Source: Escherichia coli
GTDB lineage: Bacteria > Pseudomonadota > Gammaproteobacteria > Enterobacterales > Enterobacteriaceae
Assembly: GCF_001677475.2 (NCBI RefSeq)
Contig: NZ_CP012497.1
Reading direction: 5' to 3' (one strand)
Length of the DNA stretch: 64,000 bases
A model generated the notes under the pieces. The model was not told the origin of the DNA and ran no database searches. It worked only from the letters and a program-made list of their open reading frames with translations. The position numbers and the translations under genes are program-made. This document shows positions 6,800 through 64,000 of the stretch, piece by piece. Numbering within the stretch: position 1 is the stretch's first letter; each line of letters begins with the position of its first letter.

Positions 6800-9700
6800 C
6801 TACACCTCGAGTGTCCCCTTACAAGACACAGAACGTCTGGCAAAAAGAGGTTCCACTCTGAAGCCACTGTCATGATAAAGCTCTCTGATGTTTGGCGCGC
6901 CACTGTTAGTAATGAGAACCTTTGCACCTCGACGATGAGCATCCGTCAACAGAGACACCAGGCGTTTTTGCTCTTCAAACTTAAAGTCATGACCGGAATA
7001 GTTCGTGAATCCCTCTGTATTTGGAAGCGGTTCATACGGCGGATCGCAAAAGATGACATCTCCTTCTCCGGCAGCTTCAATCACCGCTGCAAAATCACCG
7101 CATACAAACTCAGACCGCCCTTCCGCACCGAGGAAGGCTTCCATCTCCTGTAATGGGAAATACGGAGTTTTATACTTCCCGTAACCGACATTGAACTCAC
7201 CGGCCTGGTTGTAACGCGTCAATCCGTTAAAACAATGTCGGTTCAGGAACAAAAACGCCGCTGCGCGATGTAAATCATCATAGACTTGTTTGTTAAACGC
7301 ATTCCGTACTGCCAGGTATCCTTCCTGTGTGTTGTAGTCCTGGAAGAAACGATGTGCCAGAGTGATAAGTGAATGCGCCTCGCGTTGCAGAGTCTTGTAA
7401 AAGTTAATCAGGTCAGCATTCACATCATTTAGCAGATTTTCCTGGTATCCGGCATTCATGAAGACAGCTCCGCCACCAACGAAAGGTTCAATCAGGCGCT
7501 TCCCTTCTGGCAAATAGCGAAAGATTTGTTCCAGAACACCAAATTTTCCACCAGCCCATTTGAATATGGACCGTTCGAATTCTGCCGCTGGTTTAACTTT
7601 TCGCTCTTTTGTTTCACTTCCTTCTTTCTGCCGACATACGGCCTTAGTAATCCGATCGCCAATCCAGCGCATTACTGGTATTGCCATACTATTGCCGATC
7701 GCTTTGTAACGCGGTCCGTCAGCTGCAAGCATCGCGGCCTCTTCTTCGCTTAAATCTGGATAGTGATTGCGAAGATATGCCAGTTCATCTGAATTAACTT
7801 TTTTACGCTTTTCCGTCGGGATCAACGTATGCCCATCAGGAAAACCTTGCAGCCTTTCACATTCGACAGGGGTAAGACGGCGGACAGCTACTTCTGCGTT
7901 TCTTACTTCATAGCAAACAGCTGTTGGATTTTTAGCCATTAGAGATGGTGAAGTATTCTTAGTTGCAGCATGTTGTGTACCGCTCATACGCTCAGGAAAA
8001 GCCAATGTAACAAGATGCTCATGGCTTTCTTGCTCACGTGCCCGCAATGTACCATGCCCTTCTGACCAAAAACCTGCTCCTGTGCTGCTAAAAACGGCAA
8101 GGTCAGTGGCATCTTTAAAATCTCTTGCCTTTACTGTCGATGCGGTTTCATCGTCAATATATTCCCCAAATGCCGCCATCCTGAAAGCGTTTACGGCTTT
8201 CGTCGATTTCATACCGGGTGGCATGTCAGCGTGTAGGCATGGATTTAGGCTTTCGCCACTGATTGCAGCGCCATTTGCAATAATGGCGGAAGCGATTTCC
8301 TTCTTTTTTCGGCTCGGCGCAATATTCCGGCGCACGCCTTCGAACTCAAAAAGTACCGTTGCGGGATCGAGGTCTGTTCGAGCACTTGCGACAACAAACA
8401 CGCGTCGGCGTCGTTGTGCCACTCCGAAGTATTGGGCATCAAGGATTCTCCAGGCCACCTTTCGCTGCGGTCCATAAATACAACCACACTGCGGCCACTT
8501 TGGAGCATGGCAACCGGTTTTGCCATCCCACCGCCAGAACGCGTTACTTTTTCCTGATTCAGGTCGATCACCTGGTTCAAATGGCGCATCTTCTCCAGCC
8601 AATCCGGCAAGGAAACATCCGAAGGCGTTATCTGCCGATGACAGGACTCCTGGGACATTTTCCCAGACGATAACTGTCGGTTTGAGGAAGGACTCAGACC
8701 GTTTGTCGTCAATTGCATTTGCAAGCTCCACATACTTCAAAGTTAGCGCGCCGCGTTCATCATCAAGCCCACCACGTAAGCCCGCGATACTGAATGCCTG
8801 ACAGTTATGGACCACCGCACCATTGAGGATATAGGAATGATCACCTTCGACTTCTATGTTGTATACAGTATCTAGGCCTACCGATTTAAACTCTTTGACT
8901 GTTCGTAAAAGCATTCCATGAGCCAATCTTGATTTACGTGACAATTTCTGCGGGCAGATTGTTACCTGATAATAATTCCGTTGATTTACCACGCGATCCT
9001 CGATCACTTTTTTGGGCTCAACTTCAATAAAGCTGACCGAAGAAACATAACCACAAGTCTGTGACAACCCCGCAACGCCCCAAGCAAGCGCAGGACTAAC
9101 ACTATTAATTCTAAATCCCGCTTTACCACTTGGTGTCCCATCAGTATCAAGATAGCCTTGTAAAAACACATGACGCAATGGATGCGACATCACCCATGCA
9201 GGGATACGCTTAGCATGGCTTAACTCGCCAAAATGTTCATTAAGCCAATTGGCATAACACGTATCATTCAAGGTTACTTTGATGCTCCCTCGGATTTCGC
9301 TTGCCACGGAAAATATGTTTTCTGGTATGCGGCAATGAAACTTTCTCAATTTCTGGCAATTTATGCCAAAAACAACCGCCTTCTTAGATTTACCTCTCCA
9401 TCTCCTAATATATCCATCGCCAACATAAGCGCCCGCAAGATACATAGCCTGTTCTTCAGACAAGAACCGAGAACAAATATCTGGAGATGCAATATTGAAA
9501 TTAGTTAGAGCGCACCATTGATATCCCGGCATATCACATGCTGCTCGCCATTCCGGTTCAGACAACAACTCTCTCTTAAAATATGTGCCATTTTTCCGGG
9601 TGTTTTGGGCTTTCCACCGAACAGCCAGGAAGGGATGGTCATTGGTTGTTCTTATACCTAAAGGCTGCCCAACGGCATTAAGTAACCCCGTATTAGCTAT

Positions 9701-27612: not shown

Positions 27613-27830
27613 AAACCCCCCTGAACGTCGGCAGAGAAGGGGAGGTTCCAGTAACTAAGTGAATTGCGCGAGTTAGTTGAAAAACGGGCAGTAAAAATGC
27701 AGGGGCCATCAGGCAATTGAGAGCGTGCTTCGTCTTCTGTTGCTGCGATAACGAAGTGATAGTGGTGTTTTTGGCAGGAGTAAAAGCGCCAGATAAATTC
27801 AGGATGAGTAGGGGTAGGGATAGTAGCCAC
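27609..27830 (-). CDS. icd: Icd-like small protein
   Basis: 73-aa ORF overlapping the ant start (ATGA), same size and position as P1 icd. Confidence 0.5.
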   Translation of the reverse strand: MATIPTPTHPEFIWRFYSCQKHHYHFVIAATEDEARSQLPDGPCIFTARFSTNSRNSLSYWNLPFSADVQGGL

Positions 27831-28163
27831 AATGGCAGCCTCCTTTTGCTAATTTAAGGAGCTACCGCGTGAGGTTCCAATCTCAATGGCGGTAGCACTG
27901 ACTGGGTTGGAACTACCGGCGCAAAAGGGAACCGGCCTGCCTTTCGGCAGCCCAGCCAGCACTACCATTGATCTCGGAGCTATGTGCTACGTATGGCTGT
28001 GCGATGGCATGACACAAAAAAAGACGCTTTTGGCGTCTGTGTCGCCTTTTGCATTATCCGGGGTTCCAATCCCGGCATCCATTTTACTAAGATGCCTGTT
28101 TAGGATAAACCGAAAATGCATTAGCACGCAAGCAAGTTAATGTAGCATATGAAGCTAAAAAAA

Positions 28164-28180
28164 TAAAATAATTAGAGCAA
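28164..28180. promoter_or_regulatory. C1 operator-like site (P1 Op51-like) upstream of the icd-ant leader
   Basis: Reverse complement contains TTGCTCTAATTATT, partial consensus match in an AT-rich region. Confidence 0.4.
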
Positions 28181-28327
28181 CTTGTAACCATGTAAATTAT
28201 TTCCCTGGTAACTAAAATGTATGAGTTTAATTGATATGGGTCAAAGATTTTGACCATTGCATGGTGAAACTTTATGCTACAAAATGTTATTTTAAGGCGT
28301 TTTATCTGTGGCAGGAGATAGTTAATC

Positions 28328-28678
28328 ATGTCATCTGAACATGTTCGTAAAGGTGTAACAAATGCGAAATTCAATGAAGAGCAATCTAATATTCTCTTTA
28401 TTGAAATAGGAATTCTGTCAATACTGATAGGTTTAATGTCTAAATCATGGTGGGCCTTTGGCGGTTCTTTTCTTGGACTGATTTTTAGTTTAAGAATAAA
28501 ATTTCTGGCAATACCATTGATGATTGTATTTAGCTTAGTATGGGGAGCTATTGGCTATAGTATTGGTACTTTGTTTGAATCAACAGCAGCAAGTATTGTT
28601 TTGGGGGTAATTGCTTTCCTGAGTGGTTTGGGTACTCATTTTGCTGCCGTGCAATGGGCAAATGATATTGCAGAATAA
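28328..28678 (+). CDS. small polytopic membrane protein (about 4 TM helices)
   Basis: 116-aa ORF with four hydrophobic segments; low GC; first gene of a 3-gene + strand island. Confidence 0.5.
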   Translation: MSSEHVRKGVTNAKFNEEQSNILFIEIGILSILIGLMSKSWWAFGGSFLGLIFSLRIKFLAIPLMIVFSLVWGAIGYSIGTLFESTAASIVLGVIAFLSGLGTHFAAVQWANDIAE

Positions 28679-28700
28679 TTACAGATAAGAAGCGAAAAGA

Positions 28701-29177
28701 ATGAATATGAGATGGTTTTTATTATTTGTATCGTTAGTTTCAGCAGGAACATTTGCAAAAATTGATCCTCTACAATGGAATGTAATTGAAGAGAGAGGGG
28801 GGAGAGAATATACAATCCATAATCATAATGGTGATAAGATAAGTTTTTTATGTGATATGGGATTCATGTATGGTTCACCAGATAGTGCAGGTAGTTTAGG
28901 CTTGTTGCTAAGTTCGTCGAATAATAAAAAAGAGTATAATGCTGACAAGAATAAAATAGTATTAACTATAGATGGTGAGCAATATCCTTTTAGCAATCTT
29001 GGATCAATGGTTGGAGATTCTTGGTGGTATGCCTTTTGGCAAGATGCAGCAGATTCAAATGCTAATATGATTGATGCTTATGTTGATAATGAAAAAATTG
29101 CTACATTCCCTCTTTCTGGGCTAAGTAAGTTGTATCAACAAGCCAAAATGGATGGATGTATTAAACGAGGCAAATGA
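28701..29177 (+). CDS. secreted periplasmic protein
   Basis: 158-aa ORF with signal peptide MNMRWFLLFVSLVSAGTFA; Trp/Tyr-rich; low GC. Confidence 0.5.
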   Translation: MNMRWFLLFVSLVSAGTFAKIDPLQWNVIEERGGREYTIHNHNGDKISFLCDMGFMYGSPDSAGSLGLLLSSSNNKKEYNADKNKIVLTIDGEQYPFSNLGSMVGDSWWYAFWQDAADSNANMIDAYVDNEKIATFPLSGLSKLYQQAKMDGCIKRGK

Positions 29178-29218
29178 TCTTTCTGTGTTAAAGATTAACG
29201 CAATCAATAAAACATTGG

Positions 29219-30286
29219 TTGCGTAATATTCTATTATATAAATGGAATAATATGACAAAAATTACTAATTCTAATGAGTTGAAGTTACTGTATAAACAGT
29301 CAGTGCTCATTCCATCATACAAAGATCACGTAGCGATCTTGCAAAAACAATTAGGAATAGAAAAACATTCTTTTCAAAATATGACAAGATTGAATAGACA
29401 AGCTGTAATTAGTAACTCTCTTCGAAAACAATTGGCTAGTATGCCGAACTTGGCTGGAATAGGCAGCAAGTATCGTGAACATATCGCGATTTTACAGAAA
29501 CAGACTCAGGCTCTTTTCCCTCATGACGCAAATAGATATATTCAAATGCTAAGGAAACAGGCCGAAATAGCTATGCCATTACGAAAACAGCTTGAGGTGC
29601 TTAATAAGCAAGCTGGTTTAAATAACATGCAAGCGATACTTAAAGAATTACAACAAAGTGCAAGTTATAAAACAGATGTAAGCCAAGACATAAAGAAAGT
29701 ACTAGATCACTATGCTAGAACAAGAAATGCTTCATTACATCAAATAATAGAGCAGGGGATTTCATCTATTGCGCAGGCTTATGCTGAAGGTGCTACTGAA
29801 ACATCACACACCAAAAGTAATGTTCAAAATAAAGGATTAAATAAACCTAGCTCAAAGTTTGTTGATTCATTTAAAGAGCTTCCTTATCCACTGCAATGGT
29901 TACTAATGGTTATATTTTCTCAAGTTGTGTTTGGTGCTTTTATTGATTACGGAAAAGAGAAAACCTTGCTGGGAATACACAAGGCAGAATCATATTTTAT
30001 ATCTCTGTTTGAGGATAAACCAATATCAAAACAACAATTAATTAAAGAAAACAAAGAAATTAGTTGGGAAGATCTCAATGGTTTTCGTTTTATAACTGGT
30101 GAGAACGTAAGATTACACGTCAGTCCTTCTATAAATAGTGAGGTGATTGAATGCATTGGCAAAAATACTATAGTGGCTGTTTTAGATAAAAAAGATCGCC
30201 AATGGCTTTTCGTGCAGGTTAAATCAGGGGACGAGTTTATTACTGGATGGATTACACGAACATACACAAAGCCTCTTAAGGCTTGA
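29219..30286 (+). CDS. membrane-anchored coiled-coil protein with C-terminal SH3b-like domain
   Basis: 355-aa ORF with tandem helical repeats (HVAILQKQ, HIAILQKQ, LRKQ), one TM helix (LQWLLMVIFSQVVFGAFIDYG) and an SH3b-like C-terminus (GENVRLHVSPS..IVAVLDKKDRQWLFVQVKSGDEFITGWI); low GC. Confidence 0.5.
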   Translation: MRNILLYKWNNMTKITNSNELKLLYKQSVLIPSYKDHVAILQKQLGIEKHSFQNMTRLNRQAVISNSLRKQLASMPNLAGIGSKYREHIAILQKQTQALFPHDANRYIQMLRKQAEIAMPLRKQLEVLNKQAGLNNMQAILKELQQSASYKTDVSQDIKKVLDHYARTRNASLHQIIEQGISSIAQAYAEGATETSHTKSNVQNKGLNKPSSKFVDSFKELPYPLQWLLMVIFSQVVFGAFIDYGKEKTLLGIHKAESYFISLFEDKPISKQQLIKENKEISWEDLNGFRFITGENVRLHVSPSINSEVIECIGKNTIVAVLDKKDRQWLFVQVKSGDEFITGWITRTYTKPLKA

Positions 30287-30415
30287 ATTTTATCACCGTA
30301 TCTTGGGGCTGGGTGTTGATGACGATGTGCTACTTGAAGTACTTGGGTTTTTTAACGCAGCATCTGAAATGTGTAGACTGACCGGTAACAAATGACAACT
30401 CGTAGAATCGGGTAA

Positions 30416-30772
<357 letters not shown>

Positions 30773-30807: not shown

Positions 30808-30837
30808 AACAGCGGCATTGGCCGCTGCTTTTTTATT
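30808..30837. terminator. bidirectional intrinsic terminator
   Basis: CAGCGGC-ATTG-GCCGCTG hairpin with A-run upstream and T-run downstream, between the + ORF end 30772 and the mom stop 30850. Confidence 0.6.
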
Positions 30838-30849
30838 CATTACGTGGGA

Positions 30850-31587
30850 TCACTTCGGGTATGGCTGAATCCTGAATAGCTTAGTATTTAGTCGCTTTTT
30901 TGCGCGCTTGTTCAGGAATCTGATGTAGCGATACTGATTAAATTTGTGTACCACCGCCCGCTCCTTATTAGCCCGCAAATACTCGCCTCGTTGTCCTCCA
31001 CGCTTAATCGCGTTCATCGTTATCTCGTGATACCACTCGCCGTCCAGCTCGTAGAACGTGCTTTCATGGCTACCAATAAAATCAAAATTAGATGCCTGAT
31101 ACACAACACCTGCACGTCCGCAGCGTTCGTCTGCAAAGGACTGAACCCACTCCACTGATGGATACAGTAACCTGATGGTTTTCAGTGCGTAGCTGATAGC
31201 CCGTGATTCAGAGTTGCGGGGCATGTCGTCGTGTAACCACATGCGGTTCAGTTCCATATAGCCCCGGTTATCCGTTTCCAGCACGACCCGACGCCCTGAG
31301 TTGGGATTAAGGGCGTATCCCCACTGGAGAACGCCAACCAGATCACGTCCGCTGAATACCCCCAGATGCAACCAGGAGTTATTCACAAAACGGCGGGAAT
31401 AGTGCTTTGTCTGAATGATTGTGCGGGCCAGCCAGCAGGATATGGTTTCAACGCGCAGTTCCCTTGAACCATAGCCGACAATACGGCCTTCATACTCAAT
31501 AACGCAGGGTTTTGTAAGGATGCGTGATTTCTTCTCTTTTCCCACAATACAGCTCCGTGGGATGCTCCCGGGCACTCGACATGACAA
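30850..31587 (-). CDS. mom: Mom-like DNA modification protein
   Basis: ORF directly downstream of and overlapping a Com homologue, the Mu com-mom arrangement; true start probably downstream of 31587. Confidence 0.7.
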
Positions 31588-31681
31588 TGTAACGTTTACA
31601 ACGAGGGCATTTGATTTCTATATGCTTAAAACTTCCTTTAAACAGCAATTTATTGCAGTTTTTACAACGAACAGCATCCAT
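31496..31681 (-). CDS. com: Com translational regulator (zinc finger)
   Basis: 61 aa [43 protein letters not shown], colinear with Mu Com as recalled (CxxC..CxxC). Confidence 0.85.
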
Positions 31682-31803
31682 GATCCCACCTGTGTATTAA
31701 CCAGATACGATAGCCCTGAGGGCCAGGGTATTTAATCACAGATGATGCAAACTGACGATCGATACGATTGTATCGATCGTTATAAACTATACAAAATGAT
31801 GAC

Positions 31804-32393
31804 TTAATAACCGGGCGTTAACGCTCTTATATCGCTCAGTGTGGACAGCAGGGAAAGTTGCTCTTTCATCTCGCGCTGGCGTTCGTGGATTTTAAAGCCC
31901 TCCGCCACCATGGCCACCATCATGGCATCGTTCAGCGCAATAAGTTTCTCCCTGGTCAGTACGACGTTGTTATTATCCGCATCAGTCCAGAAAAATCCCT
32001 CCGGAAGCAGTCCGGCCTGCGCTGCTGCAACCACGGGGCAAGGCGTGACTGCGAGGTTTTTCCGCCATCAAAACGACGGCCATCAAACGTGAAAATAAAC
32101 TCAACGTTTTCCTGACTGTCGCGCCATGCCTCAATTTCCCGCCTTTTGGCATCCTTTGCCGCTGCAATAAGTTCCGGCGTGACGGTGAACGGGGCGATTT
32201 CGCCCCATTTCCCGCTTTGCAGCTCCTGCCAGATGTGCTGGCCTGTCGGGGCCATATCATCCTGTATGGCAGTATACAGGGCGAACTCCGTTTCACCTTC
32301 AAATAACACCTCGCAGTCAACCGCACCATTTTCAAGATAATGTGCGTTTCTGATACCTTTCACCGCTCTGATTTTCATGCCTGATTTCCTCAT
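31804..32393 (-). CDS. tail fibre assembly protein, frame broken at a T/A run near 32057-32061
   Basis: ORFs 31956-32393 and 31804-32034 are N- and C-terminal parts of one Tfa-like protein; an alternate frame reads KNLAVTPCPVVAAAQAGLLPEGFFW across the junction. Confidence 0.6.
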
Positions 32394-34684
32394 TACTCAA
32401 TGCGTACAAAAAGACCGATAAAGCCACGCTGAGTACCATAATTGTTACCCAGGCCCGAAAGCGCCGTGTAACGACCGGGGAAGTTGTATTCACCGGCACC
32501 GCCAATCACAACCTGCGGTGAGGATGCGTATGTCCCTGTATCACTAACCTGTGCACTCATGGCCAGAGGACCAAGACGGGAACCCGGCACAGTATCACCG
32601 AGTCCCAGAGAAGCATTTTCACCAAAACTTTCTCCCTGATATACCGCCATAATCGGCACACCGACGGCCGGGTATTGGTAATATGAGAACGGACCATTAC
32701 CGGCGGTTGAGGACATCAGATATGCCAGGGAGTTGCCGTCATACACAATAAGGCTTGATGTTGCATTCCAGCTGTTACCACTGTAGCGATAACGCATACA
32801 ATGTATGCTGTGCTCATCCTCGTAATACTGGTTGTAGTACAGCAGCGTTTTGAATTTACGCGCTGAGTCTGAACCATCGTTATCAGAGGGTGACCACATC
32901 ACATCAATGATACCGTTAAATTTCGTGGTGCCCACCAGCAGCGTGGAGGAGTCCGCAATACTGACCGCATAACGCCCCGGGGTGACTGTCTGCAGCCATA
33001 TAACGAAATCAGCCTGTCCGTTAAATGACAGAGCTTCGGCGCTGGTGAATGCCTGTCCAAACCCATACATCCCGGACAGGGCCAGCCTGCCCGGTGTGCG
33101 GTCACGGATATCACTCTGGGGTTCCATCGTCGCAGCCGTGCTCAGCTCAAGCTCCGTGCGCATGGCTTCAGCCGTGTCATGCGCCAGCAATGCGCGGCCC
33201 TTCTCTGACAGCAGAGACAGTGAGGCATTCCCGTCTGTATTGAAGTACAGAAGATTATCTGCCCGTTGCGTCAGTGCGCTGATTGCCGTTAAGACGTCAT
33301 TAAGCGGTTGTTTGCCTGCCAGCGCGTTTGTGATTGTCGTCGCAAAGTTCGGGTCATTGCCCAGCGCCGCTGCCAGCTCGTTCAGGGTGTCCAGAACTTC
33401 CGGCGATGAGCCAACCAGCGCAGCAAGCAGTTTGCGCACAAACGCTGCGTTCGCTGCTTCCAGACCGGCGGCATCATCCGGTGGGGTTGGGGTGGTTGGG
33501 GTGCCGGTGAAGGCCGGGCTGTCCAGTGGCGCTTTTGTTTTCGTCTCGTCCATGACGGTTTTGACAGCCTTTGGCGTGGCAGCCAGTTCCTCGCTGTCGT
33601 TGTCCGTATCACTACACAGTTGCACCAGACCTTTTTCTGTCGTGGAGGCATTTGTTGCATTCAGGTCATCAACTATCTGCTGCGCCTCATCCCTGTACTG
33701 TTTCGCTTCCTGCGCATTGTCTGCACCTGCATCCTGGCTGGCTTTAGCCTGTCGGGCGTATTCGGCGGCGCTGTTTTCATGCCCGAGTGCAGCATTTGCT
33801 GCATTTTCCGCGCTGGTTGCAGCTGATGATGCGGCATTATGATAAAGGCGGGCGCGTTCGGCGGCATCGACTGATTCGTCCCGCGCTGTGCCTGATGACT
33901 GTGCGCTGTTTTCTGCCTCACCCGCAAAACGTTCCGCATCACTGCGGGCTGTTACCGTTGCCTGCACATCCTGTGCGGTCTGCTGTGCGCTTTGTGCTGC
34001 ATTATCAGCGTGATTTTCCGCATTCTGTTCGCTTTGTGCGGCAGCTTTGGCACTGGCTTTTGCCTCGCCGGTCAGCGTTGCAGCATCAGCAAGTTTATCG
34101 ACCGCTTTCCGGACTATCGTGTCGGCATCCTTAACGGCCTGCTCTGCGCGGGCTGCATTCTGACTGGTTTCAGAGGCAAGCTCTTCAGCTTTCTGCACAT
34201 TGCCTGCAATTTCTTCTGCATCCTGCCGTATTTCCCCGGCGAGGGTTTCTGTATCCTGGCGGGCCTGTTCAGCCGCGTCCGCGTGCTCTCCGGCTTCTTC
34301 CGCGCTTTGCTGCGCCTGTTGCGCCAGTTCTTCGAATTTCTTCAGGGCTTCCGGGCGCAGGTCAATATCGGTTGCACCCAGAAAATCATTCAGTGAACCG
34401 TCCTGTGAATCTTCATAAACACGAATGACACCGATTTCTGAAAGGCGCTGTTCGCTTTGTGTCAGGCGAACGCTGTACACACCCGGCTGAACGGAAAAGT
34501 CGTACTCCCCGCTCTGTGTGGTTACGTGGCTGAAAACACCTTTCAGGATCCCTGCACGGTTGTGCAGGGAGGTCAGAGTAATGGTTGCGCCGCCCAGCGC
34601 TTCTCCCGTGGGCGTTTTAATCACACCTTTAAGCTGCGGCATCGGGACGCTCCGGCCAGTTGATGGCATTAAAGGAGGCTTCAT
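32393..34684 (-). CDS. side tail fibre protein (lambda Stf-like architecture)
   Basis: 763 aa; N-terminus like the Stf N-domain (GVIRVYEDSQDGSLNDFL), Ala/Ser/Glu-rich repeats, conserved blocks LAATPKAVKTVMDETKTKAPLDSPAFTGTPT and LNELAAALGNDPNFATTITNALAGKQP. Confidence 0.8.
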   Translation of the reverse strand: MKPPLMPSTGRSVPMPQLKGVIKTPTGEALGGATITLTSLHNRAGILKGVFSHVTTQSGEYDFSVQPGVYSVRLTQSEQRLSEIGVIRVYEDSQDGSLNDFLGATDIDLRPEALKKFEELAQQAQQSAEEAGEHADAAEQARQDTETLAGEIRQDAEEIAGNVQKAEELASETSQNAARAEQAVKDADTIVRKAVDKLADAATLTGEAKASAKAAAQSEQNAENHADNAAQSAQQTAQDVQATVTARSDAERFAGEAENSAQSSGTARDESVDAAERARLYHNAASSAATSAENAANAALGHENSAAEYARQAKASQDAGADNAQEAKQYRDEAQQIVDDLNATNASTTEKGLVQLCSDTDNDSEELAATPKAVKTVMDETKTKAPLDSPAFTGTPTTPTPPDDAAGLEAANAAFVRKLLAALVGSSPEVLDTLNELAAALGNDPNFATTITNALAGKQPLNDVLTAISALTQRADNLLYFNTDGNASLSLLSEKGRALLAHDTAEAMRTELELSTAATMEPQSDIRDRTPGRLALSGMYGFGQAFTSAEALSFNGQADFVIWLQTVTPGRYAVSIADSSTLLVGTTKFNGIIDVMWSPSDNDGSDSARKFKTLLYYNQYYEDEHSIHCMRYRYSGNSWNATSSLIVYDGNSLAYLMSSTAGNGPFSYYQYPAVGVPIMAVYQGESFGENASLGLGDTVPGSRLGPLAMSAQVSDTGTYASSPQVVIGGAGEYNFPGRYTALSGLGNNYGTQRGFIGLFVRIE

Positions 34685-35159
34685 CAGTAACGGTGCTTAA
34701 ATCCAGCGCCTTCACCGCTTTGATATATGCCATCCACTGCGTAAGACGGGCTTTGTCATCGTCGCTGATGGTGCCCAGATCCAGCTCGGTTCGCCAGTCG
34801 GAGGTGATGTCCCTGGCTTCAGCCAGAAGACGCTGGCGTTGCTTTTCTGCCAGTTGCGAATAATCAACCGGAACCGGCAGCACTTCGCCATCCAGGTAAT
34901 ACCAGCAGGCTTCAATGCCAAAACCCTCCGGCAGTTCGTCCACTTCCACAATAGTGAAACCAGCCGGATAAAGACGGGACACATCTTCCGCCATCGAAAA
35001 AATCACGCCTGTGTCAGGGTGAATACACAATTTGTATTTCTTCGTGAATTTATCCAGTGATTCATAAAAATCCTGTCCGTCTTCACTGCGGAAATACTGA
35101 ATGTTTTCACCATAAGGCATTTCTTCCGGGTAATAACGCGTGACGTTTCTGAGTTCCAT
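34629..35159 (-). CDS. tail fibre assembly protein
   Basis: Tfa-like ORF directly downstream of the first tail-fibre gene; start taken at internal Met MELRNV to avoid an overlap artefact. Confidence 0.65.
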   Translation of the reverse strand: MELRNVTRYYPEEMPYGENIQYFRSEDGQDFYESLDKFTKKYKLCIHPDTGVIFSMAEDVSRLYPAGFTIVEVDELPEGFGIEACWYYLDGEVLPVPVDYSQLAEKQRQRLLAEARDITSDWRTELDLGTISDDDKARLTQWMAYIKAVKALDLSTVTDEASFNAINWPERPDAAA

Positions 35160-35173
35160 TATTTTCTCCTTAA

Positions 35174-36169
35174 TTAACCGGATACGGTGCGCCATGAGCC
35201 ATTGATATAAACCTGAGTTTGTTTGTAATACACGCCGCCGATGTTATCCGAAGAACTTCTTCCCGTTTCCTGAACGTAAATACCTGACAAAACGCAACCT
35301 GAGGGCGCGCGAAACGTCCAGGTGATTTCGTTACCTCCGGGATTGTGAAACACTTCGCTGGTGTATCTGAAATCACGCACAGCACCAGAATCGGTACTGC
35401 TGATGGTGATATCGCTGGTGCCATCAAATGCCACATTATTAATCTTGCGGGCTGTCTGGAGTTTTGTAGCAGTTGCTGCGTTGAAACTGTCTTTTGAGGT
35501 AAAAACCTGTGCCCATTCAGACCATTCCGCCTCGTCATTGTCTCGTCTTGAGCGGATGTAAACCGGGGCATGTGCACCACTTGTGCCACTCCAGCCAATC
35601 AGTAATTCGCCTTCACCTGACGCTGTCCCCCCCTTCAGATGCAGCACATTGCCGTATGGAATGGGATAGCCGTTGTTATACGCTTCGTACATCTGAAGTC
35701 CGGTTGCTCCCTGTGAGCCACCGCTTAATGCTGTTATTCGCCCTGATGATAAAAGGGTGTCCGGTGACAGGCCAATTGCTTTAATAAACTCACTGCCGCT
35801 GTTTTTTCCAAGAATACTGCGCACAAACGCACTGAGCGGCGTTAATGCCATTGTGTCTTCGCCGGTAAAATACGGGAACGTATTATTCTCACCGGTTAAT
35901 CCGGCAATAGCTCCGGCTGAACCACTGTTCGTAATAAACTGTTTTTTCAGGGCTGCCATTATCTGACCGGTATCTGCTTTATCCGGCGTTATTCCGGCTT
36001 CTTCGAGAATTTTCAGTAATTCAGACTGAATAATATTAAACCAGTCTGGTCCTGGATAAGTGGGTGGAATACCGTTCCCGCCTTCGGTGAAATAAAGCGT
36101 TGTTTTGCTTAATTCAGCCGCAACAGGCGGCATAACAGGCACACCCGTATTATTGTCCACGTGAAACAT
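35174..36169 (-). CDS. tail fibre protein (Mu S position)
   Basis: 331-aa ORF after the gp48-like baseplate gene and before a Tfa gene. Confidence 0.65.
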   Translation of the reverse strand: MFHVDNNTGVPVMPPVAAELSKTTLYFTEGGNGIPPTYPGPDWFNIIQSELLKILEEAGITPDKADTGQIMAALKKQFITNSGSAGAIAGLTGENNTFPYFTGEDTMALTPLSAFVRSILGKNSGSEFIKAIGLSPDTLLSSGRITALSGGSQGATGLQMYEAYNNGYPIPYGNVLHLKGGTASGEGELLIGWSGTSGAHAPVYIRSRRDNDEAEWSEWAQVFTSKDSFNAATATKLQTARKINNVAFDGTSDITISSTDSGAVRDFRYTSEVFHNPGGNEITWTFRAPSGCVLSGIYVQETGRSSSDNIGGVYYKQTQVYINGSWRTVSG

Positions 36170-36172
36170 AAA

Positions 36173-36757
36173 TTATTCTCCGGTGTAATAATATTCATAT
36201 TCCGTACCCGCCAGCCGGTAATGCTTCAGCAGGCATTCCAGCTCGCGGGTACGTTCGCTGATTAATGGCGTCATGACGTCATCAATACAGGTAAACCGCC
36301 CGGCATCGTTGTCCGGGACTTCCACTTTCAGCAGCCAGCGATACCGTGCCGGATGCAGCGGGTACATGCAGTCACGCAGGCAGTGGTGCGGCAGAACGGC
36401 CGTCACCTTAATGGTGAAGCCCAGCGCCGCCGCAGCGGCTTCAATCTGCCAGGTTGCCAGCCCGCCTTTGCGGCGGTATTTCTCCACAACGGCCCGGCGG
36501 CGGGCTTCCGTTGTGGTGGCGGCAATTCCGCATTCCGGCAGCGCCAGATATTGCTCCCACTCCGGCAGCAGCTGGAGCGTGGTTTCCGGTCGCATCTCCA
36601 CATGCAGGCGCGAGGCATCGTATTCAACGCGGGTTAAACGCTCTGCCAGTGCCCTTAAAAAGCGGTTTAAATCCGCGTCGTTATCACGAGGCCATGCCTT
36701 ACCCCGTGGCATGACCTGTTGCAGTGCGGTCAGCCATTCCGTCACGCTGTGAGCCAT
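36173..36757 (-). CDS. baseplate protein, Mu gp48-like
   Basis: 194-aa ORF in the Mu-order baseplate cluster. Confidence 0.55.
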   Translation of the reverse strand: MAHSVTEWLTALQQVMPRGKAWPRDNDADLNRFLRALAERLTRVEYDASRLHVEMRPETTLQLLPEWEQYLALPECGIAATTTEARRRAVVEKYRRKGGLATWQIEAAAAALGFTIKVTAVLPHHCLRDCMYPLHPARYRWLLKVEVPDNDAGRFTCIDDVMTPLISERTRELECLLKHYRLAGTEYEYYYTGE

Positions 36758-45487: not shown

Positions 45488-46099
45488 TTAATCAGTTTCT
45501 GTTCCATCGTCACCCCGTACATGGATCACGTCGTTAATCTCAGTATGTTCACCGCTGCGCAGCGTCGCTCCGAGGCGCAGGAAGTCCGGGAGCGCGGCGA
45601 GATCAATCTCTTCATCCAGCTGAAATTCCTGCTCCCACGTCACCGCCCACATGGTGACACCCAGCCCGTCGAGGCTGGCGGAGTAAATGTTGTCTGCCCG
45701 CACATCAGCGGCCATGCGTTCAGCCCCCATGCCCGCTGTGGCATCCGACGACAGCAGGCGTTTGATCACCTTTTCGGCCAGCACTTCACAGCGCACGTCG
45801 CGGGAATACCCCCACGAATCCGTTGCCATGATGTAAGCCACCCAGGTGACCAGACCGGACAGCCCGCCGCGCGGGTTGATATCCCGGACACGCAGGGCAG
45901 CTACCCGGATACAGCCGGTACGACCGGACAGATAGCGCTTCACTTCTTCCGGGCTGTTGAACTGGCCGATGTGACGCTCCACCACGTCGGCCCGGTCAGG
46001 GGTTTTCCCCTGAAGTGCTGTTTTCAGCCAGGCCACAATGCGCTCTGCGGCCGCAACGGTGCTCCCCGGTGTGCGCAGTTCAGGGCGTTGTTCTGTCAT
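45488..46099 (-). CDS. Mu gp37-like protein
   Basis: 203-aa ORF between G-like and sheath genes. Confidence 0.5.
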   Translation of the reverse strand: MTEQRPELRTPGSTVAAAERIVAWLKTALQGKTPDRADVVERHIGQFNSPEEVKRYLSGRTGCIRVAALRVRDINPRGGLSGLVTWVAYIMATDSWGYSRDVRCEVLAEKVIKRLLSSDATAGMGAERMAADVRADNIYSASLDGLGVTMWAVTWEQEFQLDEEIDLAALPDFLRLGATLRSGEHTEINDVIHVRGDDGTETD

Positions 46100-46641
46100 G
46101 GCAGAACCTCCTTCCAGAAATGACTGATAACCTGTTGCAGCTCCTGCTGGTTGGCAGAAGACAGCCCCAGAAATTCACGTTGTGGAATGTTCATCATGCG
46201 GTTATGTGCGCCGACGGTCTGCCAGACCGGATATTTCAGCGCCCGCCCGAAACACTGCGAGATAAGCCGTTTGTGGGCGCTGACCGGCACACTGCCGGAA
46301 AAGCCGTCATTCATGATGCGGGCATAATCCAGCGGTGAACCGATACGCACCACACGGTTTTCCACGATGTACTGGATACTCTCCAGCAGATGGCCTTCAC
46401 CGCGCAGCAGACTCTGGTTGCCGTGGCGGGTCTTTTTGTACCCGTCAGACCAGTCCGGCCAGCGTTCGCCACCCGGACTGGTTTTCTCATCGATGATGCG
46501 GCGGCGGGTCTGTGATTCCACCACCGCACCGATGCTTTCCAGCAGCTCTGCCTGCAATGAACCATCTGCCAGCTTTTCAACGGCGCGGCGGATATCCTCC
46601 AGACGCTGGTCACCGCTGACCTGTACAGAAATCCCCATCAC
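46096..46641 (-). CDS. virion morphogenesis protein (Mu G-like)
   Basis: 181-aa ORF, translationally coupled to neighbours, Mu order. Confidence 0.6.
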   Translation of the reverse strand: MMGISVQVSGDQRLEDIRRAVEKLADGSLQAELLESIGAVVESQTRRRIIDEKTSPGGERWPDWSDGYKKTRHGNQSLLRGEGHLLESIQYIVENRVVRIGSPLDYARIMNDGFSGSVPVSAHKRLISQCFGRALKYPVWQTVGAHNRMMNIPQREFLGLSSANQQELQQVISHFWKEVLP

Positions 46642-47075
46642 AGCACCCCTTTCAGGTTGTTACGGGTGAACAGCCGGGCATTGGCACCCACTACAATGAT
46701 CTTCCCGTGGTCGGTTTCTGCCGGGGTGGCATACGTCGGCAGACCCAGGTCACGGGTGCCGTTCGCCATCTCACGCAGGGTTTTAATGGCGTCGTCGTAG
46801 CGTTTCTGGATCAGCTCAGTGATTTGATTGTCACGCTCTGACAACCAGTAAAACGCCAGCGATACTGCCACGCGTTGCAGCGGGCGCGGGATTTCCGTCA
46901 CTCCCAGCGGCAGCTGGTAGCGGCGGGACAGAAACGAATCAATTTCCGCTTCGGCATCACTGATGGCCTGACGGATTTTGTCCTCGTCCAGCCCGTTGGT
47001 TTCCCGGTTAATCGCCATGTTCCAGACAAGATTGCCGTCCGCGCGTAACAGGTCTTCCTGCGTGATGTACCCCAT
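46638..47075 (-). CDS. Mu gp36-like protein
   Basis: 145-aa ORF downstream of the major head region. Confidence 0.5.
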   Translation of the reverse strand: MGYITQEDLLRADGNLVWNMAINRETNGLDEDKIRQAISDAEAEIDSFLSRRYQLPLGVTEIPRPLQRVAVSLAFYWLSERDNQITELIQKRYDDAIKTLREMANGTRDLGLPTYATPAETDHGKIIVVGANARLFTRNNLKGVL

Positions 47076-62676: not shown

Positions 62677-64000
62677 TCAGGCCAGCGGATCATCTTCTTC
62701 CTGCATGGCAAAAAGTTTTTGCATCCCCAGTCTGAAATCGCGTTCAAATTCTTCGTCATGCTCTTCTTCATATTCCGGTTGCTGAACGGCCACCACATTA
62801 CCAACCGGGCGATAAACATTATCCAGCCAGGGTTCAGCCTGTTTGTGTTCCAGAATCTGAATACCTTCATCTTCAGCATCGCGAATTTTTTCCTCAGCGC
62901 GTTTGCGCATCCCTTTAATACGCTGCTGTTGTTTGTGATATTCCGCACTGACAGGGAAGGCTGCGCGTTTATTGCCGTTCCATATCGCCTCACAGATAAA
63001 GCTGCCGTCCTTGCGACGTACCGTAATTCGCTCGGCGTCATGAATGTCATAACTGATAAGCACTTTGCGACCGTGTTCGTCACGCAGCTCCGGCGCGTAA
63101 TAAATATTGCCAAGCCATTTGATTTCACAGCGTTTTACCGGACGCTCCACCATCGGGCGGAACATGTCGCGCAGCTCAAGATCACTCAGCCACTCAATTT
63201 CGGTGTCTTCTTCTGCCAGGCGTTTTTTTCTGAACTCTGCCGGGCTGTAATGCCGCCCGTTCGGTTTCATAGGCAGCTCAGAATGCGGGCGGTTGTTGTA
63301 CCATTCCACGCCTTCACGAATAGCCTCAATAAGCTCCGCCCACGATGGTAGCTCGCGCATTGCAGCTTTCTGGCGGTCGTTCAGAGGCTTGTCCTGTTGC
63401 AGGGCGTTAAACGCTGAACGCAGATCACGGTTAAGTACACGCAACGATTCCCGGTCAGCACCCTTGCCAAAATAGGTGCGATACCTCCTGGCTATACGCA
63501 TCGGCAGTGTCCGGTTCAGGCGTTCAATAATGCCGCGCCCCTGTGGATTACCGGCAATACCTGTTGGGTGTTTAATCCCCAGGCGGGCAGAATACCCACG
63601 ACCTCTTTGTCAAGCATGTCAGCCGTTTCACCAGAACCGTTATCCGAGTAATACAGGAACGGTTTTCCGTGGTTGCGAATGCCGTGCTGTATCGCTCCGG
63701 CAACGGCGAAAACGTTCTCGGCAAGATCAAGACTCCAGCCAACAACAAACCGGGTTCCACCGTCGATCACAAACGTGACTTCTGGTGAGAATGGACGCCC
63801 GTGGATCGGATGCGCACATTTCAGCTTCATACCGTGACCGTCACCAATCCAGACATAATTCACCGGCATAGCTGTCCAGTCGCGGCGGGTGAATCCTTCA
63901 AGCTGACGGTATTCACTGCCGGTAACACGGCCTTTTTGTTTCACCACTTCCGGCAATTTCTTCATGGCATAACGAACCACATCGTAAGAGGGCATCACCT
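62677..64000 (-). CDS. A: transposase A (Mu A-like), 5' end beyond the window, frame broken at a C-run (63577-63580)
   Basis: ORF 63516-63998 carries the DDE catalytic core (YYSDNGSGETAD) and ORF 62677-63501 the C-terminal domain; an alternate frame reads GIKHPTGIAGNPQGRGIIERLNRTLPMRIARRY across the junction. Confidence 0.85.

Follow-up and report, generated by a model that had tools for sequence, protein, structure and literature searches.

Two tandem tail-fibre modules and no inversion switch in a lineage of Mu-like Escherichia coli prophages

The 64,000-nucleotide (nt) stretch of the Escherichia coli contig NZ_CP012497.1 analysed here (the window) is a composite, in which a P1-like part, from position 1 to about 30723, is followed by a Mu-like prophage that continues to the end of the window. 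The tail region of this prophage codes for two different fibres, a short one resembling the S protein of phage Mu (fibre 1) and a long one resembling the side fibre Stf of phage λ (fibre 2), each followed by the gene of a putative chaperone, and we detected no counterpart of the DNA inversion switch of Mu. We propose that this prophage and its relatives carry two constitutive receptor-binding modules, that both fibres are displayed on one virion from separate attachment sites and that their distal parts are swapped by recombination. We assign this reading as a whole a probability of about 0.62.

Organization of the tail-fibre region

In the direction of transcription, baseplate genes resembling those for Mu gp44 to gp48 are followed by the genes for fibre 1, a Tfa protein, fibre 2 and a DUF4376 protein, then by a 122-nt spacer, com and mom (Table 1). 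Translation starts were chosen by their ribosome-binding sites and are consistent with the RefSeq annotation of relatives. With these starts the genes are tightly packed: 3 nt separate the gp48 homologue from fibre 1 and 14 nt separate fibre 1 from Tfa, the start of fibre 2 overlaps the Tfa stop by 14 nt, and the DUF4376 gene begins 14 nt past the fibre 2 stop. No terminator-like site was found in any intergenic gap from gp48 to a hairpin past mom, and between the two fibre pairs neither promoter nor terminator signals exceed the expectation from shuffled sequence; the genes from gp48 through DUF4376 are likely to be cotranscribed. A preliminary description of the region had recognized a 331-amino-acid (aa) fibre with its Tfa and then a λ Stf-like fibre in a 763-aa open reading frame (ORF), with all fibre-region genes on one strand and nothing between the second helper gene and com. 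Profile and structure matches agree with this account of the fibres, the common strand is the minus strand, and only the spacer precedes com. The same description had taken the second helper for another Tfa and had overlooked a break in its frame. Here it has to be corrected on both counts, as the gene belongs to the DUF4376 family (PF14301), has no match to PF02413, and in the given sequence is broken by a frameshift into ORFs of 145 and 76 aa.

In fibre 1, a constant anchor at the N terminus is followed by a middle part resembling the variable part of P1 S (P1 Sv) and by a C-terminal tip. Fibre 1 residues 1 to 124 share 39.5% identity with Mu S, and residues 1 to 78 match the solved Mu S structure (5yvq/9ki1; E = 1.7e-22). 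The middle part (residues 124 to 248) is ~64% identical to the C(+) variable part of P1 S, and the tip (residues 271 to 331) matches the C terminus of the phiTE short tail fibre (E = 1.3e-14). Both the homology of its N terminus to the gp48-docking part of S and the position of its gene, 3 nt past the stop codon of the gp48 homologue, are characters of a Mu S-type fibre. In Mu, a docking loop formed by residues 133 to 155 of gp48 holds the N terminus of S (PMC11915804), and by analogy the gp48 homologue would be the expected docking partner of fibre 1. The Tfa gene probably starts at 35159, with an AGGAG ribosome-binding site 7 nt upstream of the ATG, and its product is 31% identical to Mu U'; we predict that it is the cognate chaperone of fibre 1.

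Fibre 2 has an entirely different N terminus. It contains PF08400 (92.5 bits against a cut-off of 26.6) and PF03406 (59 bits) and matches phrog_2636 with E = 1e-174. Its start is probably at 34642 (749 aa), behind a GGAG site. In phmmer searches its residues 3 to 90 match the collar domain of Ur-λ Stf (9e7m, residues 4 to 92; E = 3.2e-10), while residues 3 to 186 match the "collar spike" gp40 from the neck of phage XM1 (7kjk, residues 4 to 187; E = 1.6e-10), a match that covers both the N-terminal domain and the coiled coil. Further along the shaft, the Phage_fiber_2 repeat is 57% identical to residues 105 to 146 of Mu S, and the distal segments share 84 to 86% nucleotide identity with the lambdoid stf genes of Rac-SA53 and SerU-LTIIb.

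The two pieces of the second helper gene score 41.7 and 22.7 bits against PF14301 (cut-off 25) and match PF14301/phrog_1141 in register, at profile positions 2 to 121 and 117 to 188 of 194. Proteins with DUF4376 are reported to be tail-fibre chaperones in Alteromonas phages (PMC10579305), and the position of the gene directly behind fibre 2 is in keeping with a predicted role of its product as the cognate chaperone of that fibre.

Conservation, selection and covariation

Analysis of 15 complete loci revealed the same architecture in both fibres, with a nearly constant anchor and a highly variable tip. The first 80 residues of fibre 1 are at least 80% conserved, and its C-terminal 100 residues fall to as little as 14% identity; the first 100 residues of fibre 2 are at least 90% identical, and in both fibres the last 100 to 150 residues drop to 14 to 15%. 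The ratio of nonsynonymous to synonymous substitution rates (dN/dS) is 0.05 to 0.21 in the fibre 1 anchor, 0.07 to 0.28 in the fibre 2 anchor (first 150 codons) and 0.08 to 0.24 in Tfa, for which a single pair of low divergence gives 0.41. Both anchors are under purifying selection. The variable tips, in turn, covary with their adjacent helper genes: Mantel tests associate the fibre 1 C terminus with Tfa (r = 0.65, p = 0.0005) and the fibre 2 C terminus with DUF4376 (r = 0.47, p = 0.016), whereas the cross-pair comparisons are not significant (fibre 1 C terminus with DUF4376, r = 0.20, p = 0.12; fibre 2 C terminus with Tfa, r = 0.00, p = 0.47). Both modules look functional and alike in organization.

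Absence of an inversion switch

Mu has its gin gene in the interval from the fibre genes to com, and the equivalent interval of the prophage is contained entirely in the window. Searches with Mu Gin gave no match by tblastn over the 64 kb (E ≤ 1) and nothing significant by phmmer --max over all ORFs (E ≤ 10), the best hit, in the P1-like part, having E = 0.07 and 8 bits. With as many as 3 mismatches allowed, the full gix site has 0 matches in the window, and its core motif AAACCNNGGTTT occurs at chance level only. Inverted repeats between 30000 and 37500 are at most 28 nt long and 71 to 94% complementary, and none of them brackets a fibre/chaperone cassette. Neither strand of the window holds a silent or second copy of either fibre or either chaperone. 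The absence extends to 29 related loci, comprising six E. coli chromosomal loci of the lineage, one of a second lineage described below and 22 viral contigs that reach past the start of fibre 2, none of which contains a Gin detectable with the Mu query.

As a positive control, the same query detects a Gin of 75% identity in another Mu-like prophage, of a different lineage. Because the query works in that lineage and fails in this one, the absence of the switch is a genuine lineage trait, and the earlier statement that the region has no invertase or invertible segment stands. The prophage that served as control is nested in the Stx2c-converting phage Stx2c_JNE082796 (locus L004, 6001 to 8515), where an S gene is accompanied by the gin gene and by a Tfa and S' tip in opposite orientation, a switch of the G-segment type. 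Inversion and fixed strategies therefore coexist among the Mu-like prophages of E. coli.

Distribution and variants of the lineage

Identified by its baseplate genes, the lineage is present in 48 of 5426 complete E. coli genomes, in all of them on the chromosome. Annotated E. coli prophages of this type show, with minor variations only, the gene order YmfQ, fibre 1 (259 to 331 aa), Tfa (176 aa), PF08400 fibre (301 to 1037 aa), DUF4376, com and mom. The same synteny holds, as far as each contig extends, in 23 of 23 IMG/VR contigs retrieved with the N terminus of fibre 2. Among the relatives, fibre 1 ORFs have 259 to 366 aa and fibre 2 ORFs are intact at 443 to 1040 aa. In addition, the same two-fibre arrangement is shared by a second Mu-like lineage, whose baseplate differs and which lacks com-mom.

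One variant concerns fibre 2 itself. In E. coli STEC719 (locus L007, 3430 to 6156), a 301-aa protein consisting of the PF08400 anchor and the coiled coil replaces the long fibre. Behind it come ORFs of 100 aa, 456 aa (an SGNH/GDSL hydrolase) and 50 aa in place of the DUF4376 gene. This suggests that a receptor-binding protein that is separate and enzymatic can be mounted on the collar protein.

A model with two independent attachment sites

Solved virions offer precedents for where a fibre with such a collar might attach. In Ur-λ, twelve Stf collar domains ring the gpV/gpM junction (PMC12617516), and in the myovirus XM1, 18 gp40 domains bind the head-completion and tail-terminator rings and hold six trimeric spikes at the neck (PMC10457771). 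In our model, the late tail operon would carry two constitutive receptor-binding modules in place of the invertible G segment of Mu. The S-like fibre of module 1 would dock in the loop of the gp48 homologue and, with the help of Tfa, form six baseplate fibres. The λ Stf-like fibre of module 2, served by the DUF4376 chaperone, would attach through its immunoglobulin (Ig)-like collar at a second, independent site, most plausibly an exposed neck or terminator ring by analogy with XM1. Because the anchors are unrelated, fibre 2 would not compete with fibre 1 for gp48, and we favour the neck as its probable site because, of the exposed rings of a sheathed tail, the neck is closest to the sites used in λ and XM1. 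Display of both fibres together would confer two receptor specificities at once, and host range would shift by recombinational exchange of the distal parts instead of DNA inversion. The earlier suggestion that the two fibres are fixed in tandem is borne out by the synteny, the purifying selection, the unrelated anchors and the covariation within pairs; that each virion carries both of them is a further step, which we infer.

A broader formulation would hold that the lineage exchanged G-segment inversion for permanent dual display, with the collar at a probable neck site, and that PF08400 acts as a "universal plug" across virion morphotypes. We advance this tentatively and would give it somewhat less than an even chance. 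If it is true, siphovirus, podovirus and myovirus prophages of E. coli could trade complete side-fibre modules.

Evidence against the model and alternative explanations

Several observations weigh against the two-site model. The collar domain is at most ~43% identical to that of any phage in a collection of 50,697 records (41 to 43% to lambdoid phages), so that all known members of the lineage seem to be prophages, and the closest match to fibre 1 in that collection sits in a different Mu-like lineage. The gp36-like protein, encoded at 46638 to 47075, and the protein resembling P2 S and Mu gp37, encoded at 46096 to 46641, both predicted to be at the neck, have no sequence match to the neck chains of XM1 (7kjk); in a sequence search of the PDB, the former matches Mu gp36 (gene product J) and the latter nothing significantly. 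The closest solved relative of the prophage sheath is that of Mu (E = 5e-111), a phage without such a fibre. In one sub-clade, fibre 2 is reduced to a stub of 113 to 156 aa directly before com, without DUF4376, and fibre 2 is therefore dispensable for prophage persistence. Finally, the DUF4376 frame is broken in the window, into 145 aa (31956 to 32393) and 76 aa (31804 to 32034).

The reduced sub-clade, formed by the E. coli O166:H15 JNE21-009 clade (L009, 4299 to 8077) together with loci L025, L028 and L029, has two further peculiarities: a gp48 homologue lengthened to 324 aa and, before fibre 1, an additional ORF of 352 aa without a Pfam match.

The broken frame is traceable to a single-nucleotide deletion, which leaves a run of four C residues at 32035 to 32038 where E. 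coli RM9088 has five; the 191-aa DUF4376 protein of RM9088 maps onto the two frames with 100% and 98.7% identity. As this is the sole uncompensated indel in 9.7 kb relative to RM9088, it might be taken as real, leaving module 2 dead in this copy, fibre 2 unable to fold and the virion with baseplate fibres only, much as laboratory λ lost its side fibres by a frameshift in stf (PMC12617516). The wider window, however, presents this deletion in another light. Compared with close relatives, the window has five uncompensated 1-nt indels in G/C runs, and all of them are deletions in runs of five G or C, the other four lying in the P1-like part at 6815, 9834, 12134 and 17411. Shortening thus affects 5 of 25 G5/C5 runs, 0 of 85 G/C runs of four and 0 of ~104 A/T runs of at least five. 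Because all the G/C-run indels are the same kind of G5/C5 deletion, the one in DUF4376 is probably an artefact of assembly or systematic base calling. The pattern might alternatively be a mutator signature or a recent real inactivation. The deletions probably also make P1-like genes, dmt and upfB among them, look frameshifted when they are not. Moreover, the DUF4376 ORF is intact, at ~190 aa, in all other loci of the lineage in which the region is complete. We therefore doubt that the frameshift is real and consider it unlikely that module 2 is dead in this copy, a state that would in any case be compatible with the two-module model for the lineage as a whole. Programmed frameshifting was also considered for this gene and rejected: the site (GCC CCG UGG) is no slippery heptamer, the relatives have one ORF, and the deletion fits the artefact pattern. 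Neither the truncated DUF4376 product nor fibre 2 had an exact match on record in public assemblies.

The remaining alternatives concern what fibre 2 does. The Stf-like fibre and DUF4376 could be a lambdoid passenger fragment with no working part in the virion; PF08400 fibres are typical of lambdoid and Shiga toxin (Stx) phages, the distal parts of fibre 2 are as close to lambdoid stf genes as noted above, and one sub-clade has lost most of the fibre. A passenger would hardly be expected to have a collar that is specific to the lineage (at least 90% identity inside it, at most ~43% to deposited phages), a fixed junction that overlaps the Tfa stop, purifying selection, ORFs that are intact at varied lengths and a chaperone that covaries with the fibre tip, or to recur in the same arrangement in a second Mu-like lineage, and we regard this explanation as improbable. 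We give as little credence to a branched fibre, in which not the tail but fibre 1, or the Tfa retained on it, would be the docking site of fibre 2. Branched tail fibres are an established architecture, and in the T5-like phage DT57C LtfB reportedly docks on LtfA; in our prophages, too, the genes are adjacent and fibre 1 is unusually short (259 to 366 aa, against 504 aa in Mu S). In two solved virions, however, the domain to which the fibre 2 anchor is homologous binds rings of the tail or neck, the identity of the fibre 2 N terminus is linked neither to that of the fibre 1 N terminus (r = 0.09) nor to that of Tfa (r = -0.01), and the fibre 2 anchor stays constant while the middle and C-terminal parts of fibre 1 are swapped. 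As for alternate use without inversion, whereby competition for one site or differential expression would give each virion a single fibre type, Mu and P1 do reach their host-range breadth by alternation. Since the anchors here are unrelated, competition for one site is unlikely, and the translational coupling of the genes and the lack of promoter or terminator signals between the pairs speak against separate expression; we see very little probability in it. The model with two constitutive modules and separate attachment sites remains our preferred reading.

Features of the region and the setting of the prophage

Table 1. Tail-fibre region and right end of the Mu-like prophage, in window coordinates
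Feature	Position	Strand	Basis
gp48 homologue (BW3, YmfQ family, baseplate wedge)	36173..36757	-	PF10076, 111 bits; 30% identity to Mu gp48
Fibre 1, short Mu S-type baseplate fibre, 331 aa	35174..36169	-	phrog_1833 "tail fiber", E = 2.6e-107
Tfa chaperone (putative), 176 aa	34629..35159 (maximal ORF to 35195)	-	PF02413, 77.2 bits, cut-off 22.1
Fibre 2, λ Stf-like, 749 aa	32393..34642 (maximal ORF 763 aa from 34684)	-	PF08400, PF03406
Collar (anchor) domain of fibre 2, residues ~1-90	34373..34642	-	Matches to 9e7m, 7kjk
Phage_fiber_2 repeat, fibre 2 shaft	33527..33646	-	PF03406, residues 347-386 of the 763-aa ORF
DUF4376 chaperone gene (putative), split	31804..32378 (ORFs 32378/32393-31956 and 32034-31804)	-	PF14301, phrog_1141
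C4 run (C5 in intact relative), 1-nt deletion site	32035..32038	-	Alignment with RM9088
Spacer between DUF4376 and com, Pmom-like regulatory region, 122 nt	31682..31803	-	GATC cluster as in Mu
com, translational activator of mom	31496..31681	-	PF10122; phrog_13819, E = 6e-39; 69% identity to Mu Com
mom, DNA modification, last prophage gene	30850..31587	-	PF25680, 254 bits; 95% identity to Mu Mom

The right end of the prophage differs sharply from the rest in its closeness to Mu. The com-mom module, which together with the spacer spans 30825 to 31803, is ~89% identical at the nucleotide level to those of Mu, SfMu and D108, whereas the tail and baseplate proteins reach merely ~30 to 40% identity to those of Mu. 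The spacer aligns with the gin-com spacer of Mu and retains a conserved ACGATCGA...ATCGATCG motif and clustered GATC sites. The high com-mom identity and the GATC cluster, set against the low identity of the tail proteins, point to a right-end module acquired in an apparently recent mosaic exchange with Mu proper. Directly after mom lies a GC-rich hairpin (30808 to 30827), and three direct repeats of ~15 nt (AAnTTATTCAAGATA) at 30735, 30757 and 30792 lie at the right end of the prophage; these repeats are candidate transposase-binding sites (attR).

Bases 1 to ~30723 are 97 to 98% identical at the nucleotide level to phages P1 and P7 and include repA, parAB, capsid and sheath genes, repL and ant1. 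The Mu-like element, a transposable prophage on the minus strand, is inserted in the P1 pmgC gene at a junction near 30723, which leaves pmgC truncated (remnant 30440 to 30772); it extends past the window end at 64000, so that its early region is only partly covered. No plasmid among the 72,556 in PLSDB spans the P1/Mu junction. With the insert, the P1-like genome should be too large for normal headful packaging. From ~27800 to 30387, a block of low GC content (~34%) takes the place of the P1 simB/simC region and contains ORFs of 116 and 158 aa and the gene of an SH3-domain protein of 355 aa (phrog_7086); the right half of the block at least, queried from 29500, is present in ~500 P1-like plasmids of PLSDB.

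Significance and comparison with known systems

All parts of the two modules belong to known families that are already named by RefSeq, and neither receptor-binding genes in tandem nor a mosaic evolution of fibres is new. In the searchable literature we found no description of this Mu-like lineage, with its fixed dual-module layout replacing the G segment, of a Mu-type phage whose fibre has an anchor of the λ/XM1 collar type or of a PF08400 fibre paired with a DUF4376 chaperone. The textbook example of a host-range switch by inversion is Mu, and ~1% of complete E. coli genomes carry relatives with what appears to be a different strategy, in which two fibres are fixed, each with an anchor and a chaperone of its own. 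This strategy involves no new protein family or mechanism. It does indicate that a Mu-type tail probably offers a second site of attachment and provides a testable example of lambdoid side-fibre modules entering contractile-tailed phages. For predicting or engineering the host range of these prophages or of Mu-type particles, both fibres and both chaperones would matter.

Like those of Mu and P1, the fibre region combines an S-like N terminus with a U/U'-like Tfa and, as in Mu, lies between the gp48 homologue and com-mom. Unlike them, it has no gin or cin, no gix or cix and no inverted S'U' cassette; the interval occupied in Mu by U', S'v and gin is taken here by the Stf-like fibre and the DUF4376 gene in direct orientation. 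With Ur-λ Stf, fibre 2 shares the PF08400 collar, a coiled-coil shaft rich in Ala, Gln and Glu, the Phage_fiber_2 repeat, a mosaic tip and a downstream chaperone gene. It differs from the Ur-λ system in that the chaperone is of the DUF4376 and not the Tfa/PF02413 family and that the tail is of the contractile Mu type and not that of a siphovirus, with no exposed equivalent of the gpV/gpM junction. The Vibrio phage XM1 resembles the prophage in being a myovirus with a simple baseplate, whose gp40 combines an Ig-like N-terminal domain, a trimeric coiled coil and a receptor-binding part. The distal part of gp40 is a tailspike whereas that of fibre 2 is a fibre, and the number of gp40 sets its gene far from the numbered baseplate genes, whereas the fibre 2 gene belongs to the fibre operon. 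A further parallel is the Shigella phage Sf14, in which a single virion, whose simple baseplate is Mu-like, bears both fibre types (PMC11821841). Its fibre genes, too, are in tandem, coding for 391 and 792 aa as against 331 and 749 aa here. Sf14, however, is a virulent FelixO1-like phage with no chaperone genes, whose two fibres share a similar baseplate-binding N-terminal motif, whereas the prophage described here has unrelated anchors and one chaperone gene for each fibre.

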